Shown here: piece after piece, positions 3,370 through 8,260 of the stretch
Layout of the letters: each line of letters begins with the position of its first letter
How positions within the stretch are numbered: position 1 is the first letter of the stretch
DNA from: a virus
Lineage: Duplodnaviria; Heunggongvirae; Uroviricota; Caudoviricetes
Virus record (IMG/VR): IMGVR_UViG_2706796742_000001
Coordinates: 23,511 to 87,510 of that record
Length of the DNA stretch: 64,000 bases
Direction: 5' to 3' (one strand)
Position numbers and translations under genes: made by a program
The notes under the pieces: generated by a model
Databases searched by the model: none
What the model saw: only the letters and a program-made list of their open reading frames with translations
What the model was told of the DNA's origin: nothing

Positions 3370-3446
3370 CTCTGTTTAGCTCAGCTTGGTAGAGCGTTCC
3401 GTTTGGGGCGGTAAGGCCGGAGGTTCAAGTCCTCCAACAGAGACCA
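3370..3446 (+). tRNA. tRNA-Pro (anticodon TGG)
   Basis: hand fold: acceptor CTCTGTT/AACAGAG, D-stem GCTC/GAGC, anticodon loop TTTGGGG, T-arm GGAGG-TTCAAGT-CCTCC, CCA encoded. Confidence 0.7.
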
Positions 3447-3453
3447 AATTAAT

Positions 3454-3531
3454 GTTCCAGTAGACAAAATGGTATAGTCACCACTCTTTCAAAGTGGATA
3501 TTTGAGGGTTCAAATCCCTTCTGGAACGCCA
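3454..3531 (+). tRNA. tRNA-Glu (anticodon TTC)
   Basis: acceptor GTTCCAG/CTGGAAC, anticodon stem CCACT/AGTGG with loop CTTTCAA, T-loop TTCAAAT, CCA encoded. Confidence 0.65.
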
Positions 3532-3538
3532 GTTTTGA

Positions 3539-3611
3539 CAGAAGACCAATTACAGCAAACTTAATCTTATACATCTGAAGGTAAATCGGACAAAGAAGAG
3601 ATTTGGTCTGG
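3539..3611 (+). repeat. structured element, CAGAAGACC...GGTCTGG family, copy a
   Basis: 5' CAGAAGACCAA and 3' TTGGTCTGG can pair across ~55 nt; motif recurs at 3706, 4156, 4243, 5921. Confidence 0.4.
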
Positions 3612-3622
3612 TCATTAAGAAT

Positions 3623-3699
3623 TGCGGGTATAGAGAAAGGGCGTCTCACATGTCTCATTAGCATGGTATCGGCAGGTTCGACTCCTGCACCCGCCTCCA
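3623..3699 (+). tRNA. tRNA-Met or Ile2 (anticodon CAT)
   Basis: anticodon stem CATGT/GCATG with loop CTCATTA, T-arm GCAGG-TTCGACT-CCTGC, CCA encoded; position 1-72 is mismatched. Confidence 0.6.
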
Positions 3700-3705
3700 A
3701 TTTTG

Positions 3706-3766
3706 CAGAAGACCGTATGCAGCAATAAACTACTTTTTGCGGATAAAAGAAAAAAACACGGTCTGG
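3706..3766 (+). repeat. structured element, CAGAAGACC...GGTCTGG family, copy b
   Basis: CAGAAGACCGTATGCAGCAA ... CACGGTCTGG. Confidence 0.4.
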
Positions 3767-3777
3767 CAATGTATTAA

Positions 3778-3854
3778 GGTTAGGAAGCACATAAGGTATG
3801 TGCGGTCGCCTGTTAAGCGAATGGCACAGGGTTCGAATCCCTGACTAACCGCCA
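3778..3854 (+). tRNA. tRNA-Asn (anticodon GTT)
   Basis: acceptor GGTTAGG/ACTAACC, D-stem GCAC/GTGC, anticodon loop CTGTTAA, T-arm CAGGG-TTCGAAT-CCCTG, CCA. Confidence 0.7.
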
Positions 3855-3922
3855 AATTTAGGAGAGAAGCGATTGCTCACCGATTTGTAAGGTGCAAGTC
3901 CTTAGCCTGAATAGAAATTAAA

Positions 3923-4011
3923 TGTGTCGTTATCCCGTAGATGGTAGCGGTGGGGACTGTAAATCCCTTGTCATTGAGACTCGGTAGGTTCGACTCCTAC
4001 ACGGCACACCA
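3923..4011 (+). tRNA. tRNA-Tyr (anticodon GTA), long variable arm
   Basis: acceptor GTGTCGT/ACGGCAC, anticodon stem GGGGA/TCCCT with loop CTGTAAA, long variable arm, T-arm GTAGG-TTCGACT-CCTAC, CCA. Confidence 0.75.
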
Positions 4012-4016
4012 ATAAA

Positions 4017-4094
4017 GGCTATGTAGTTTAATAGGGTTAAAATACTCCCCTGTCACGGGAGATGATGTGAGTTCAAGTCTCATCGTAGCCGCCA
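4017..4094 (+). tRNA. tRNA-Asp (anticodon GTC)
   Basis: acceptor GGCTATG/CGTAGCC, anticodon stem CTCCC/GGGAG with loop CTGTCAC, T-loop TTCAAGT, CCA. Confidence 0.75.
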
Positions 4095-4155
4095 ATTTTG
4101 AGAGGGCTATTTAGCCCCTCCCTTAAAGGGTTCTTACGAGTATCCTTTAAAGGGG

Positions 4156-4229
4156 CAGAAGACCAAATTCAGCAAGTTACTTAAAATTTCAAGCCAATTC
4201 AATTTTGAAAAAATTTAAAACTTGGTCTG
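4156..4229 (+). repeat. structured element, CAGAAGACC...GGTCTGG family, copy c
   Basis: CAGAAGACCAAATTCAGCAA ... ACTTGGTCTGG. Confidence 0.4.
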
Positions 4230-4242
4230 GCTCAACAAATTT

Positions 4243-4325
4243 ACAGAAGACCGTTTACAGCAAAACTTAAACAATCTATTTCTCGGTAAAGAAAAGGCGA
4301 AGGTTCGATTCCCTCCACTTCTACC
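4243..4325 (+). ncRNA. tRNA-like chimeric element: CAGAAGACC 5' motif joined to a T-arm and CCA 3' end
   Basis: starts CAGAAGACCGTTTACAGCAAA like the repeat family, ends GAAGG-TTCGATT-CCCTC then CACTTCT-A-CCA; AGAAG/CTTCT can pair as a 5-bp acceptor-like stem; no canonical anticodon arm found. Confidence 0.35.
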
Positions 4326-6323: not shown

Positions 6324-6342
6324 ATTTAAAGAGGCTATTTAG

Positions 6343-6900
6343 ATGAGATATTTGAAGTATGCTTCATGGATTTTCCTAGCTTTGCTAGAACCATTTGCAG
6401 CAATCCTAGCAGTCATCTTAGCACCTTTTGTAGTTCCATTCTACAGTGAGAAGAAAGGGCACTTACCTTTCGGCTTCAGATGGATGGAGACATATGACAA
6501 CCCAATTGATGGTGATAAAGGTCATGTTGAACGATGGGCTAAGATTAGAAAGGTTGGTAAGCTTGGTGTCTATATGCAGAGAGTCGGTTGGCTCTGGAGA
6601 AACAAAGCTTATAACTTCTCTTACCATGTGTTAGGAAGAGATGTAAAAGATGTTACTAAGTGGAAAGGTAATATCAATGTAAGTTCTGACCCTGAAGATA
6701 ATCAGACAGGTTATCTCCTAATGTGGAACAGCAATGCTTGGGGATTATTTGCTTTTGTACCATCAATTAAAGTCTTTGGTAAACAGTTTTACTGGAGAAT
6801 TTATATTGGATGGAAACTTAAAAGTGTTGTCCCAGAAGAAAGAGCATTCTCAAGGGAAAGAGTTATGTTGGCATTCTTTATTCATCCACTAAGAAAATAA
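6343..6900 (+). CDS. hypothetical membrane protein encoded inside the tRNA array
   Basis: 185-aa ORF with AAGAGG RBS; hydrophobic N-terminus IFLALLEPFAAILAVILAPFVVPF; Trp/Tyr-rich. Confidence 0.5.
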   Translation: MRYLKYASWIFLALLEPFAAILAVILAPFVVPFYSEKKGHLPFGFRWMETYDNPIDGDKGHVERWAKIRKVGKLGVYMQRVGWLWRNKAYNFSYHVLGRDVKDVTKWKGNINVSSDPEDNQTGYLLMWNSNAWGLFAFVPSIKVFGKQFYWRIYIGWKLKSVVPEERAFSRERVMLAFFIHPLRK

Positions 6901-6908
6901 AGATTTAA

Positions 6909-6984
6909 AGGGGATTAGTTTACAAGGTTAAAACCTCGGTCTTTGAAATCGAAGAAGTTGGTTCAATTCCAACATCCCCCGCCA
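6909..6984 (+). tRNA. tRNA-Gln (anticodon TTG)
   Basis: anticodon stem TCGGT/ATCGA with loop CTTTGAA, T-arm GTTGG-TTCAATT-CCAAC, CCA; 1-72 position unpaired. Confidence 0.6.
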
Positions 6985-6986
6985 AT

Positions 6987-7065
6987 GCTCCATTACTCCA
7001 ATTGGCAGAGAGGCCAGACTTAAAATCTGTGTTATGTATCGGTTCGAATCCGATATGGAGTACCA
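6987..7065 (+). tRNA. tRNA with anticodon TAA (Leu codon TTA); variable arm shorter than typical class II
   Basis: acceptor GCTCCAT/ATGGAGT, anticodon stem CAGA/TCTG with loop CTTAAAA, ~7-nt variable region, T-arm ATCGG-TTCGAAT-CCGAT, A73, CCA. Confidence 0.5.
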
Positions 7066-7070
7066 AATTT

Positions 7071-7146
7071 AGCGGTATAGCATAACTGGCAATGCAGCAG
7101 TCTCTGAAGCTGTCTTATTAAGGTTCAAATCCTTATGCCGCTGCCA
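7071..7146 (+). tRNA. tRNA-Gln (anticodon CTG)
   Basis: acceptor AGCGGTA/TGCCGCT, anticodon stem GCAGT/GCTGT with loop CTCTGAA, T-arm TAAGG-TTCAAAT-CCTTA, CCA; anticodon arm nearly identical to tRNA-Arg(ACG) at 6248. Confidence 0.6.
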
Positions 7147-7177
7147 CTTCTAAGGGTTCTTACGAGAGTCCTTAAAT

Positions 7178-7253
7178 GTGGCCTTATCATAAATGGTAAT
7201 GACCCATGCTGTGAACATGGTCTATACGGGTTCAAATCCCGTAGGTCACCCCA
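7178..7253 (+). tRNA. tRNA-His (anticodon GTG)
   Basis: acceptor GTGGCCT/AGGTCAC, anticodon stem CCATG/CATGG with loop CTGTGAA, T-arm ACGGG-TTCAAAT-CCCGT, CCA. Confidence 0.7.
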
Positions 7254-7259
7254 ATTTAT

Positions 7260-7335
7260 AGTCCAAGTAGCTTATATGGTTAAAGCGCGTGTCTGAAAAA
7301 CATGAGAAGAGGGTTCAAATCCCACTGGACTACCA
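7260..7335 (+). tRNA. tRNA-Phe (anticodon GAA)
   Basis: acceptor AGTCCAA/CTGGACT, anticodon stem CGTGT/ACATG with loop CTGAAAA, T-loop TTCAAAT, CCA. Confidence 0.6.
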
Positions 7336-7351
7336 ATTTCAAAGGTGCTTA

Positions 7352-8086
7352 ATGAAAGAGATGACAGAACAAGGTAAGGAGATTTTTAATCTCTTAAAAA
7401 CCGGTAGAGGGTTTTCTAATCCCCTTATTACTGGTGCAGCAGTTCTCGGTGGAACCGTAGCTGCCTCTACATCACTTGTAAGCTCTATTAGCTCTGTAAC
7501 AGACCCTACAATAAAGGATAAGCTTATTGCTGCTGGACTTACAACAGTTCTACTTAGCAGCTTTACAACGAGTCTGACAAGCACTACATCAACCACTAAA
7601 ACACTGACAGATTACGGTCAAAAGTCCATTGATGAGTTTTCATCACGTATGCAGGTAGCAAAAGGATATTCTAATGCTATGGGTGCAGCAGGAGAGCAAG
7701 TCGGTTGTACACCTTTTAGTGGTATTATGGGTGTTGCTACAGAATATGGTCAAAAAGCTATTGACACAATTAACAGTGCACTAGATAGTGTTAACGGTGT
7801 GTTAAGTGACTTACAGGATGCTATTGACGAAGGTCTTGATACTATTTCTGATTTAGCTAACCAAGCTGTTAGCAAGATTAATGAAGGTATCTCGAAGATT
7901 ACAGCTTATGCAGACGAAGTTGTGCAGATGATTGAAGAAGAAGCTGCCCTTATTGCAGAGTACCTTAAAACGAATATCAATGGGTTCTTAGCAGGTATCT
8001 TACCAGACTGGTTTGATGATGCTTGTAAAACTGGTGTAATTGACACTATTGCAACACCAGAAATGAAGAACGCATTACAGAAATAA
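7352..8086 (+). CDS. hypothetical Ser/Thr-rich protein
   Basis: track ORF 7289..8086 begins inside tRNA-Phe; internal ATG at 7352 with AAAGGTG RBS is the likelier start; long S/T-rich low-complexity stretch. Confidence 0.5.
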   Translation: MKEMTEQGKEIFNLLKTGRGFSNPLITGAAVLGGTVAASTSLVSSISSVTDPTIKDKLIAAGLTTVLLSSFTTSLTSTTSTTKTLTDYGQKSIDEFSSRMQVAKGYSNAMGAAGEQVGCTPFSGIMGVATEYGQKAIDTINSALDSVNGVLSDLQDAIDEGLDTISDLANQAVSKINEGISKITAYADEVVQMIEEEAALIAEYLKTNINGFLAGILPDWFDDACKTGVIDTIATPEMKNALQK

Positions 8087-8088
8087 TG

Positions 8089-8180
8089 GAAGATTAACCC
8101 TAAAAGGTAAGGGAGCAGTTTGCTAAACTGCCAGTAGCTGAGAAATCGGTGTACCAGTTCAAGTCTGGTATCTTCCTCCA
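8089..8180 (+). tRNA. tRNA-Ser (anticodon GCT), long variable arm
   Basis: acceptor GGAAGAT/ATCTTCC, anticodon stem GCAGT/ACTGC with loop TTGCTAA, long variable arm, T-arm ACCAG-TTCAAGT-CTGGT, CCA. Confidence 0.7.
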
Positions 8181-8184
8181 ATTT

Positions 8185-8260
8185 GAATCCGTGACAGAAA
8201 TGGCTATGTGCCTGTCTGCAAAACAGGTTTATAAGGGTTCGAGTCCCTTCGGATTCTCCA
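8185..8260 (+). tRNA. tRNA-Cys (anticodon GCA)
   Basis: acceptor GAATCCG/CGGATTC, anticodon stem CCTGT/ACAGG with loop CTGCAAA, T-arm AAGGG-TTCGAGT-CCCTT, CCA. Confidence 0.7.

Follow-up and report, generated by a model that had tools for sequence, protein, structure and literature searches.

Why does a phage carry a nearly complete set of tRNA genes, and does the presence among them of tRNAs that host nucleases cleave tell us what the set is for? The question is raised by 25 tRNA genes that ARAGORN finds on the + strand at 3370-8260 (4,891 bp); with the same program, the remaining 59 kb of the window (the whole 64-kb stretch of DNA that was analysed) yield no tRNA gene. The initial annotation had spoken of about 25 tRNA genes in about 5 kb, and the count is exactly 25. 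A cluster of this size is far above chance expectation.

Content of the array and its relatives

The genes are given below; each was found by ARAGORN and Rfam unless another source is named.

3370-3446, +, tRNA-Pro(UGG)
3454-3531, +, tRNA-Glu(UUC)
3623-3699, +, tRNA-Met(CAU) #1, atypical: U1xC72 mismatch, U73, U37 (ARAGORN only)
3778-3854, +, tRNA-Asn(GUU)
3924-4011, +, tRNA-Tyr(GUA), long variable arm (ARAGORN; Rfam tRNA-Sec model, 29.6 bits)
4017-4094, +, tRNA-Asp(GUC)
4331-4407, +, tRNA-Met(CAU) #2
4410-4484, +, tRNA-Ile(GAU), one of two deeply divergent alleles (also comparison of relatives)
4821-4897, +, tRNA-Arg(UCU)
5136-5225, +, tRNA-Ser(UGA), 3' CCA incompletely encoded
5478-5554, +, tRNA-Leu(UAG), without long variable arm
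5562-5637, +, tRNA-Lys(CUU), isoacceptor absent from host (also host comparison)
5644-5719, +, tRNA-Ala(UGC), with G3.U70
5726-5800, +, tRNA-Gly(UCC)
5808-5884, +, tRNA-Thr(UGU), A32, without AriB and Old motifs (also motif comparison)
5980-6054, +, tRNA-Val(UAC)
6056-6133, +, tRNA-Leu(CAA), without long variable arm
6248-6323, +, tRNA-Arg(ACG)
6909-6984, +, tRNA-Gln(UUG)
6987-7065, +, tRNA-Leu(UAA), without long variable arm
7071-7146, +, tRNA-Gln(CUG)
7178-7253, +, tRNA-His(GUG), G-1 not encoded
7260-7335, +, tRNA-Phe(GAA)
8088-8180, +, tRNA-Ser(GCU)
8185-8260, +, tRNA-Cys(GCA)

Twenty-three of the 25 reach the gathering score of the Rfam tRNA model (E-values 4e-13 to 4e-3). The tRNA-Tyr gene falls below that score and is 100% conserved in relatives, and tRNA-Met #1, which gives no Rfam match even at E<=5, is 97-100% conserved across the seven relatives compared. 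CCA is encoded by 24 of the genes, and the discriminator base is that of the host in 19 of the 21 comparable tRNAs. The annotated anticodons correspond to 19 amino acids, and the array covers 19-20, the twentieth through the following non-canonical, unannotated 26th gene, if it is functional.

5040-5122, +, tRNA-Trp-like gene (relaxed ARAGORN, weak Rfam match)

This candidate can be aligned with E. coli trpT, presents a CCA anticodon in a CUCCAAA loop and a G73-CCA end, and has a D stem of 3 bp that about 8 extra nucleotides separate from the acceptor stem. Compensatory changes occur in 8 of its 19 pairs and 99% of the cells are paired, a result equalled by none of 500 shuffles. It was found in 231 phage records and is annotated as a tRNA in none of the 45 sampled. 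Comparative evidence therefore points to a covariation-supported, previously unannotated gene; the Sf14 paper, which counts 19 amino acids, makes no mention of it.

The array is the known, standard cluster of about 25 tRNAs of the Felix O1-like phages of E. coli and Salmonella (Ounavirinae), since its region is 94-97% identical at the nucleotide level to more than 200 Felixounavirus genomes. Felix O1 and the Felixounavirus phages (pinkbiff, PHB11, Bas63, REP8) share locus, order and flanks (a Ro60-like ORF 5', terminase 3'), with most tRNAs 97-100% identical, and gene order is also the same in Moogle, SUSP1 and Sf14. Single tRNAs are gained and lost among close relatives: the presence of Arg(UCU), Arg(ACG), Asp, Ser(GCU) and Cys varies, and the genome under study carries PHB11-type Ile and Leu(UAG) alleles. 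In the Sf14 (Mooglevirus) array the anticodon loops are nearly identical and Lys(CUU) is likewise absent from the host, but that array has 26 tRNAs (PMC12482277), including a Lys(UUU) that the genome under study has lost.

This tRNA-Lys(UUU), found in 235 related records, was deleted here and left a scar.

4296-4326, +, junction of an upstream tRNA relic (T-arm) with what remains of tRNA-Lys(UUU) (3' end) (pinkbiff alignment)

Relative to pinkbiff about 275 bp are missing between T-loop repeats, and the junction lies within GGTTCGAT. The junction occurs as one contiguous piece in none of the 40 best phage records, and the deletion appears to be found in the genome under study alone. In L034, tRNA-Lys(UUU) has been converted to CUU.

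Codon use and decoding capacity

Compared with a small sample of host genes (36 ORFs), phage ORFs favour the codons cognate to the phage tRNAs (Mann-Whitney p=0.006; mean log2 phage/host codon ratio +0.39 for cognate codons against -0.66), in agreement with the codon adaptation that the initial annotation had put forward as one role of such arrays. AGA is used 5 times as often as in that sample, and ACA, CUA, UCA and CCA more than twice as often. With strict E. coli wobble, the ancestral set of 26 tRNAs and the Trp-like gene would be able to decode 91.5% of the codons in the phage; if U34 reads all four codons of a box, the figure rises to 99.8%. By standard wobble rules tRNA-Gly(UCC) does not read GGU, the commonest Gly codon of the phage, and AAA, 4.4% of the genome's codons, has no phage reader left. 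Eight Felixounavirus 'REP' phages infect Syn61-delta-3, a strain without tRNA-Ser(UGA/CGA), and the phages shown to infect it are described as encoding an appropriate seryl-tRNA; the tRNA-Ser(UGA) of the genus is therefore very probably functional in vivo.

These observations bear on two related readings. The one we favour, as somewhat the more probable account of the locus, is that the array is a codon-tuned, near-autonomous decoder set for which buffering against nucleases is a by-product and not a target-specific adaptation. The other, which we hold possible but doubtful, is the 'all-destructive' shut-off model (Yang et al. 2021; Ross & Doore 2025, PMC12482277), in which the host genome is degraded, host tRNAs decay and late translation depends almost wholly on phage tRNAs. 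Such independence from the host would suit a set that reads 91.5-99.8% of phage codons and would, with a functional Trp-like gene, span all 20 amino acids, as well as the finding that Sf14 late genes reach their highest tRNA adaptation index when the phage tRNA pool is taken by itself (PMC12482277). However, knockouts of Bas63 tRNAs are mostly neutral, and its tRNA genes are mostly non-essential on four laboratory hosts, so any benefit of the array is conditional or quantitative. Moreover, tRNAs in general remain stable for as long as an infection cycle lasts. Finally, the genome under study has lost its only AAA reader and tolerates the loss, so it still relies on host tRNA-Lys.

Targets of tRNA-cutting nucleases

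The initial annotation had read the array as covering the targets of tRNA-cutting defences and colicins. A dedicated counter-defence, in which the array mainly replaces host tRNAs cut by anticodon nucleases and the phage copies are mutated to resist cleavage, is in our view unlikely. Such replacement is a published mechanism, proven in T5-like phages against PARIS, retron-Eco7 and PrrC, and proven also by means of phage tRNA libraries. However, an array that spans 19-20 amino acids includes every target by default, so that the presence of the targets is uninformative. The Lys, Glu, Tyr, His, Asn, Asp and Arg isoacceptors that had been listed are all found, but the Lys species is CUU and not the UUU isoacceptor cut by PrrC and PARIS. 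The tRNA lost from this genome is the one that those defences are best known to target, and its loss here and conversion in L034 argue against the counter-defence reading. Colicins E5 and D, for their part, are inter-bacterial toxins and not anti-phage defences.

Anticodon regions were also compared with those of the host, as the initial annotation had proposed, and the 7-nt loops are identical to those of E. coli for Tyr, Asn, Asp, Arg(ACG) and Arg(UCU), which speaks against resistant copies. In favour of them, phage Thr and Asn lack the mapped stem motifs of AriB and P2 Old (Thr(UGU) has UAAGGA and Asn(GUU) UAAGCG, against the AriB site UAAUC|A/C), the paired CNG of the host counterparts is absent from Thr, Asn and Tyr, and position 41 of tRNA-Lys(UUU) in relatives is not that of the host. 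However, no phage anticodon stem is identical to that of the host, so motifs would be expected to be missing from Thr and Asn in any case. Furthermore, the AriB hexamer UAAUCA is exact in Lys(CUU) and Arg(UCU), and Lys(CUU) also has the paired CNG motif of P2 Old recognition. Deeply divergent alternative alleles of Thr, Ile, Leu(UAG) and Ala within otherwise near-identical arrays could mean diversifying selection.

Infection data from other phages also count against counter-defence: no Bas63 tRNA is reported as a counter to any of the 12 defence systems scored, and tRNA-rich T5-like phages nonetheless fall to retron Eco2, a defence that cuts phage tRNAs. The counter-defence hypothesis was rejected by the authors of the Sf14 paper (PMC12482277), who favour supply for codons and late genes, similar to the present reading. 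T5, also a virulent coliphage, has a comparable, spare-pool-like region; among its tRNA genes, about 23-24 in number, are those for Lys, Thr, Asn and Tyr. There, specific tRNAs are experimentally required and nuclease-resistant, whereas the genome under study lacks Lys(UUU) and retains the AriB site in its Lys(CUU). T4, another virulent coliphage that faces Lys-specific anticodon nucleases, has 8 tRNAs and the heal-and-seal enzymes Pnk/Rnl1, which repair PrrC-cut tRNA-Lys; the relative REP8 has no annotated RNA ligase, and its 'polynucleotide kinase' is without Pfam support. Of the two roles initially suggested, codon adaptation is thus supported, and nothing in the array is specific to the replacement of destroyed tRNAs.

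Surroundings and probable role of the array

The array contains and adjoins the following further features.

1789-3204, +, Ro60 (TROVE + vWA) homologue, immediately 5' of the array (Pfam, PHROG, AF2)
3216-3343, +, conserved hairpin and two promoter-like sites (TTGACA at 3223 and 3314), 5' of tRNA-Pro (consensus scan)
4500-4528, +, promoter-like TTGACA-17-TATAGT, 11/12 matches (consensus scan)
6343-6900, +, DUF7338 ORF inside the array, predicted membrane protein (Pfam, PHROG)
7352-8086, +, DUF7217 ORF inside the array (Pfam)
8298-8446, +, two terminator-like hairpins with U-runs (8298-8357, 8423-8446), between the array end and the terminase operon

For the DUF7217 ORF, the ATG at 7352 fits the CDS length in relatives, and a GTG at 7289 would overlap tRNA-Phe. 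From their position, the sites at 3216-3343 may act as promoters; the total number of promoter-like sites in the consensus scan is not above shuffled expectation. The Ro60 homologue matches DUF2828 and DUF7788 in Pfam and PHROG 850 ('RNA-binding protein'), and its AF2 model (pLDDT 88.6) has Ro60/TROVE structures as all of its top 11 PDB matches (TM <=0.66); gp130, its Bas63 counterpart, counters the Ppl defence.

It is very improbable that some array genes, such as the Trp-like gene or tRNA-Met #1, are Y-RNA-like partners of Ro60 and not decoders, an idea of Ro60-partner RNAs speculated on in the PhageMaP preprint: the homologue does lie next to the array on its strand, Y RNAs mimic tRNAs and usually have their genes on the strand of Ro60 and no more than 4 kb away, these two array members are atypical in structure and tRNA genes also occur near distant Ro60-like loci, but Rfam gives no Y-RNA match even at E<=5, the conserved GNCGAA(N)G motif and bulged terminal stem were not found, and the Trp-like RNA has the features of a decoder, namely a complete acceptor stem, G73-CCA and a conserved anticodon loop with CCA. 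Bacterial and phage Ro60-Y RNA modules (Chen et al. 2014; Thermus phage phiLo Ro60, PDB 9L5Y) similarly combine a TROVE + vWA protein with same-strand tRNA-like RNA genes downstream, but here the Y-RNA signature is missing, and the genes downstream encode genuine tRNAs that have an anticodon and a CCA end.

The reading as a codon-tuned decoder set builds on the gene content, conservation, codon match, decoding capacity and retained identity elements of the array, and from these we infer its expression, charging and benefit during infection. The array lies between the Ro60-like gene and the terminase operon and seems to be expressed from promoters of its own, and host synthetases would charge a near-complete set tuned to the AT-rich codons of the phage, with one U34 tRNA per four-codon box and added tRNAs for the host-rare codons AGA, CUA, ACA, UCA, CCA, UUA and AAG. 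This would sustain translation at a high rate, especially of late genes, with little reliance on how large the host tRNA pool is or in what state, and buffering against any depletion of host tRNAs, including that caused by tRNA-cutting defences, would follow as a by-product.

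Composition and conservation of the tRNA array

By ARAGORN, the 64-kb window holds 25 tRNA genes, which all lie on the + strand between 3370 and 8260; the rest of the window has none. The gathering threshold of the Rfam model RF00005 is reached by 23 of them, and the two exceptions, tRNA-Tyr and a first tRNA-Met(CAU) (Met #1, 3623-3699), are called by ARAGORN only; this tRNA-Tyr has a long variable arm and is 100% conserved in close relatives. The coordinates, gene count and amino acids (Lys, Glu, Tyr, His, Asn, Asp and Arg) listed in the initial annotation are all correct by ARAGORN and Rfam. 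Its claim of a Lys isoacceptor stands for the presence of a Lys tRNA, but the anticodon is CUU, and UUU is missing.

Among phage records, 312 match the array region, and 228 of these cover at least 80% of it at 94-97% identity; this level of identity is shared with more than 200 Felixounavirus genomes. The slots follow the same order in phages pinkbiff, Felix O1, Bas63, REP8, PHB11, Moogle and SUSP1, an order also found in the published array of the Shigella phage Sf14, and synteny with the reference genomes comprises a Ro60-like ORF upstream, DUF7338 and DUF7217 ORFs inside and the terminase downstream. On these sequence grounds (identity, gene order and synteny) the cluster is identified as the Ounavirinae (Felix O1-type) tRNA gene cluster. 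The array itself is already known, and its counter-defence interpretation is a published hypothesis.

Features in and around the tRNA array (window coordinates)
1789-3204, + strand: Ro60-like ORF of 471 aa, upstream border of the array
3223, 3314 and 4500: perfect TTGACA hexamers
4296-4326: deletion scar (compare 4330-4610 of L001, a locus from a relative)
5040-5122, + strand: non-canonical, unannotated tRNA-Trp-like gene, found by relaxed ARAGORN and a weak Rfam tRNA-Sec match
6343-6900: conserved DUF7338 ORF embedded in the array
7352-8086: conserved DUF7217 ORF embedded in the array
8298-8357 and 8423-8446: two hairpins with U-runs, 3' of tRNA-Cys

The positions of the hexamers and of the terminal hairpins suggest that the array is transcribed as one or more units of its own, a suggestion from position only, since promoter-like sites are no more numerous than the shuffled expectation. 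In four ORF-free gaps (4485-4820, 5226-5477, 5885-5979 and 8261-8482) there are conserved hairpins whose stability exceeds that of shuffled sequences, with z-scores of about -3.5 to -7 that are approximate, since they come from mononucleotide shuffles. Some of the pairs show compensatory changes, and the gap at 5885-5979 is 97-100% conserved over three genera. These hairpins gave no match to known RNA families.

The identity elements of the array are predicted to be compatible with the host aminoacyl-tRNA synthetases. The discriminator base is the same as in the host in 19 of 21 comparable tRNAs, tRNA-Ala has G3.U70, the Leu tRNAs have A73, and CCA is encoded by 24 of the 25 genes. Departures from this pattern are found at position 73, which differs from the host in Arg(ACG), Ser(GCU) and both Met tRNAs, and in tRNA-Ser(UGA) (5136-5225), whose 3' end reads GCC followed by T, so that CCA is incompletely encoded. 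Furthermore, tRNA-His (7178-7253) does not encode G-1, the preceding base being T. The main identity element for E. coli HisRS is G-1:C73. The His and Tyr tRNA genes are flagged as pseudo in the GenBank record of Felix O1.

A tRNA-Trp-like gene and other unusual tRNAs

The tRNA-Trp-like gene fails both ARAGORN and the Rfam tRNA model at default settings. It has a 7-bp acceptor stem, closed by G1.U72 in the window and by A1-U72 in most relatives, followed by G73-CCA. A T-arm is present, the D stem has 3 bp, and the stretch that separates the acceptor stem from the D stem is longer by about 8 nucleotides, which are invariant (within GAUGUUAAGA). Its anticodon arm, ACGGC-CUCCAAA-ACCGU, carries a CCA anticodon in a loop that is the same as in E. 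coli trpT. In a sample of 11 distinct variants, one of them from a Yersinia phage, 99% of the cells pair, and compensatory double changes are seen at 8 of 19 pairs, spanning all four helices; none of 500 shuffles reached this level of covariation, and slid registers gave zero compensation. The element occurs in 231 phage records, and of the 45 sampled not one has it annotated as a tRNA; the genus Felixounavirus has been reported to be without tRNA-Trp. Two relatives have a canonical 71-nt tRNA-Trp(CCA) at exactly this slot, followed by an insert of about 400 bp (L031:11394-11464 and L037:11388-11458), and in both the tRNA-like sequence at the Arg(UCU) slot is a different one, which ARAGORN does not call. 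If the Trp-like gene is functional, the array would cover all 20 amino acids, and tRNA finders would systematically miss a gene of this kind.

Other members of the array are also unusual. The three tRNA-Leu genes (5478-5554, 6056-6133 and 6987-7065) are 77-79 nt long, with a 3-bp D stem and a variable region of just 4-8 nt without the extra arm, as against 85-87 nt for host Leu tRNAs. In Met #1, which the Rfam tRNA model misses, there is a U1xC72 mismatch, position 73 is U73 and position 37 is a pyrimidine (U), yet the gene is 97-100% conserved among the relatives compared. Assignment of Met #1 and of the second tRNA-Met(CAU) (Met #2, 4331-4407) as initiator, elongator or Ile2 was tried and dropped, as their 53-62% identity to host met and ileX genes does not discriminate; both are without the three G-C pairs in the anticodon stem. 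Four slots, Ile (4410-4484), Leu(UAG) (5478-5554), Thr (5808-5884) and Ala (5644-5719), hold alternative alleles with a mutual identity of only 56-76%, within arrays that are otherwise 97-100% identical between the window and the seven relatives (L001 and L018-L023). The distribution of these alleles cuts across genus boundaries, the window Leu(UAG) being like that of Moogle and unlike that of Felix O1. As a separate observation, the Ser(GCU) slot of Bas63 (L019:8880-8972) holds a 93-nt Ser-type tRNA with a long arm that both ARAGORN and the depositors label Arg(UCU); if this label is correct, AGA would be read by a tRNA with a Ser body.

Divergence from host tRNAs and absence of tRNA-Lys(UUU)

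When each phage tRNA was compared with the E. coli K-12 isoacceptor for its anticodon, identity was just 54-76%, so that the phage tRNAs are old lineages and not recent captures. The comparison of anticodon loops with the host suggested by the initial annotation gave a divided result: the loops are the same as in the host in Tyr, Asn, Asp, Arg(ACG), Arg(UCU), Ile, Gly, Val and Ser(UGA), and differ, mostly at positions 32 and 38, in His, Glu, both Gln, the three Leu, Pro, Ala, Thr, Phe, Cys and Ser(GCU). Since the pattern CU-NNN-AA is seen in 17 of the 25 phage loops, most of these differences arise where the host tRNA, and not the phage tRNA, departs from it. Moreover, colicin E5 and PrrC act on the anticodon itself, and loop mutations could give no escape from them.

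For the anticodon stem (DETERMINANTS), two determinants have been mapped experimentally. AriB, the tRNA-cutting nuclease of PARIS, cleaves at U36AAUC|A41, and its cleavage is abolished by U39A; the site is missing from phage Thr (UAAGGA) and Asn (UAAGCG). The paired CNG motif of P2 Old is present in host Thr, Asn and Tyr tRNAs and missing from their phage counterparts. However, every phage stem differs from that of the host, whether or not the tRNA is a known target, so that loss of stem motifs is the default outcome and is not diagnostic, and no general depletion of the AriB and Old motifs was seen across the phage tRNAs. The exact AriB hexamer UAAUCA (U36AAUCA41) occurs in phage Lys(CUU) (5562-5637) and Arg(UCU) (4821-4897), host Arg(UCU) being without it. 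At positions 28-31 and 39-43 the anticodon stem of phage Lys(CUU) agrees with the stem of host tRNA-Thr(UGU), which is the preferred target of both AriB and P2 Old.

In relatives a tRNA-Lys(UUU) gene lies between Asp and Met #2, where the window is without about 275 bp. The junction falls within a common T-loop motif, GGTTCGAT, between the 3'-half relic of an upstream tRNA and the T-arm of Lys(UUU). This relic, which lies upstream of Lys(UUU) in relatives (L001:4300-4345 and equivalents) and consists of a T-arm (GAAGG/CCTTC) and the acceptor 3' strand with no CCA, supplied one of the two repeats for the deletion. At least 80% of the Lys(UUU)-Met segment is found in 235 phage records, and the window junction as one contiguous piece is absent from the best 40 matching records. 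The repeat-flanked deletion could be real or could be an assembly artefact. Lys(UUU) is present in all seven fetched relatives and in all 26 Ounavirinae-type IMG/VR loci except one, L034, in which the gene at 10679-10754 is a chimera that joins acceptor ends of the Lys(UUU) type to an interior of the Lys(CUU) type. This pattern indicates gene conversion between Lys paralogues, by which the UUU anticodon was lost a second time, independently. AAA makes up 4.4% of phage codons, even though the window genome is without Lys(UUU).

Proposed codon supply and nuclease buffering, and the Ro60 homologue

In a codon-compensating set, the tRNAs of a phage correspond to codons that it uses more often than its host does (Bailly-Bechet et al. 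2007). With 61 non-overlapping window ORFs (17,227 codons) set against only 36 ORFs from host loci, the phage shows relative over-use of the codons for which it has a cognate tRNA (RSCU ratios, Mann-Whitney p=0.006). The phage to host ratio is 5.0 for AGA, 2.7 for ACA, 2.4 for CUA and UCA, 2.3 for CCA, 2.1 for UUA and GUA, and 1.4 for AAG. This enrichment, from a host sample of that size, bears out the role in codon adaptation that the initial annotation had put forward. Strict E. coli wobble rules would let the window set decode 85.8% of phage codons; adding Lys(UUU) and the Trp-like gene brings the figure to 91.5%, or to 99.8% if U34 can read every codon of a four-codon box. The array would be a codon-tuned, near-autonomous decoder set in which buffering against nucleases is incidental, and we consider this the best-supported reading and probably the right one.

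At least one of these tRNAs very probably works in vivo: the eight REP phages that infect Syn61-delta-3, a strain without tRNA-Ser(UGA/CGA), are Felixounaviruses (PMC12269064), and REP8 carries an array of the window type, so that Felixounavirus tRNA-Ser(UGA) is very probably functional. A T4-like heal-and-seal system was considered for REP8 and rejected, since no Pfam domain was found in the product annotated there as 'polynucleotide kinase', the 'phosphatase' consists of a macro domain and the ligase is of the DNA type. All of these are encoded beyond the window.

An 'all-destructive' variant overlaps with the codon-tuned decoder reading and is possible, with a distinctly smaller chance of being correct. 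It is weakened by the reliance of the window genome on host tRNA-Lys and by the dispensability of the Bas63 tRNAs, which PhageMaP found mostly non-essential on four hosts. We regard a dedicated counter-defence role as unlikely, the Thr, Asn and Tyr tRNAs being those for which it may hold. The mechanism is well established for T5. An evading tRNA of this T5 type (van den Berg et al. 2023) would encode the depleted isoacceptor, be substituted at the positions of nuclease recognition or cleavage, and by its loss sensitise the phage to the defence. The window does encode nuclease-target isoacceptors, namely Tyr(GUA), Thr(UGU), Asn(GUU) and the Arg tRNAs. However, the primary target of PrrC and PARIS, Lys(UUU), is absent and only Lys(CUU) is found; with this deletion the window genome is without the tRNA most clearly tied to evasion of both systems. 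Moreover, nuclease escape was rejected by the authors of the Sf14 study (Ross & Doore 2025), and PhageMaP reported none of the Bas63 tRNAs among the counters to the 12 defence systems scored, in a section that makes no mention of PARIS, PrrC or P2 Old. Retron Eco2 cuts tRNAs, including those of T5, yet restricts T5-like phages, and most Felixounaviruses escape it; the Bas63 counter to Eco2 (Ec67) is reported to be a GIY-YIG protein.

The ORF that borders the array upstream (1789-3204) is, on its modelled fold, a Ro60 homologue with TROVE and vWA domains. The AF2 model has a pLDDT of 88.6, and the top 11 PDB matches in Foldseek are all Ro60/TROVE structures, with E-values of 4e-8 to 2e-6; searches of PDB by sequence (phmmer and a profile search) gave no Ro60 similarity, which is visible by fold alone. 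The model confirms the PhageMaP statement that the Bas63 protein gp130 is a Ro60 homologue, and this Bas63 homologue is reported to counter Ppl defence. The family has more than 2,700 members, many of them in large phages. Three IMG/VR contigs of 36-222 kb (L051, L053 and L054) encode Ro60-like proteins only 29% identical to that of the window and have a few tRNA genes (Met, Ser-UGA, Met, Asn) in the flank of the gene, so that the linkage of Ro60 to tRNA genes may extend beyond the Ounavirinae.

No Y RNA was found in the array by Rfam at E<=5, where only weak tmRNA, tRNA-Sec and plastid-UTR noise appeared, and the motif GNCGAA(N)G has one copy in the array gaps, at 4296 inside the deletion scar, which is not conserved in pinkbiff. 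The idea that the gaps contain a Y RNA, or some other ncRNA already known, was consequently rejected; their conserved hairpins show no Y-RNA signature and fit no recognisable family. That conserved but aberrant array RNAs are maintained as partners or substrates of Ro60, and not as decoders only, seems to us very improbable. The main candidate would be the Trp-like RNA, which has the invariant GAUGUUAAGA insert, and Met #1, which has U37, a possible second; if the reading were true, Ro60 and the array would be one phage module for RNA surveillance or counter-defence.

For a phage genus as well sequenced as this one, the array is textbook content and in that respect adds little. The Trp-like gene and the natural variants without Lys(UUU) are modest additions that are directly testable, and nature also provides test cases for recognition by synthetases in the three Leu tRNAs that have no long variable arm and in the tRNA-His that does not encode G-1. 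The window offers a natural deletion of Lys(UUU) in an otherwise intact array, and L034 a natural conversion of UUU to CUU. Together with relatives that carry Lys(UUU), these two genomes provide a ready comparison of Felixounavirus tRNAs against PARIS or PrrC.
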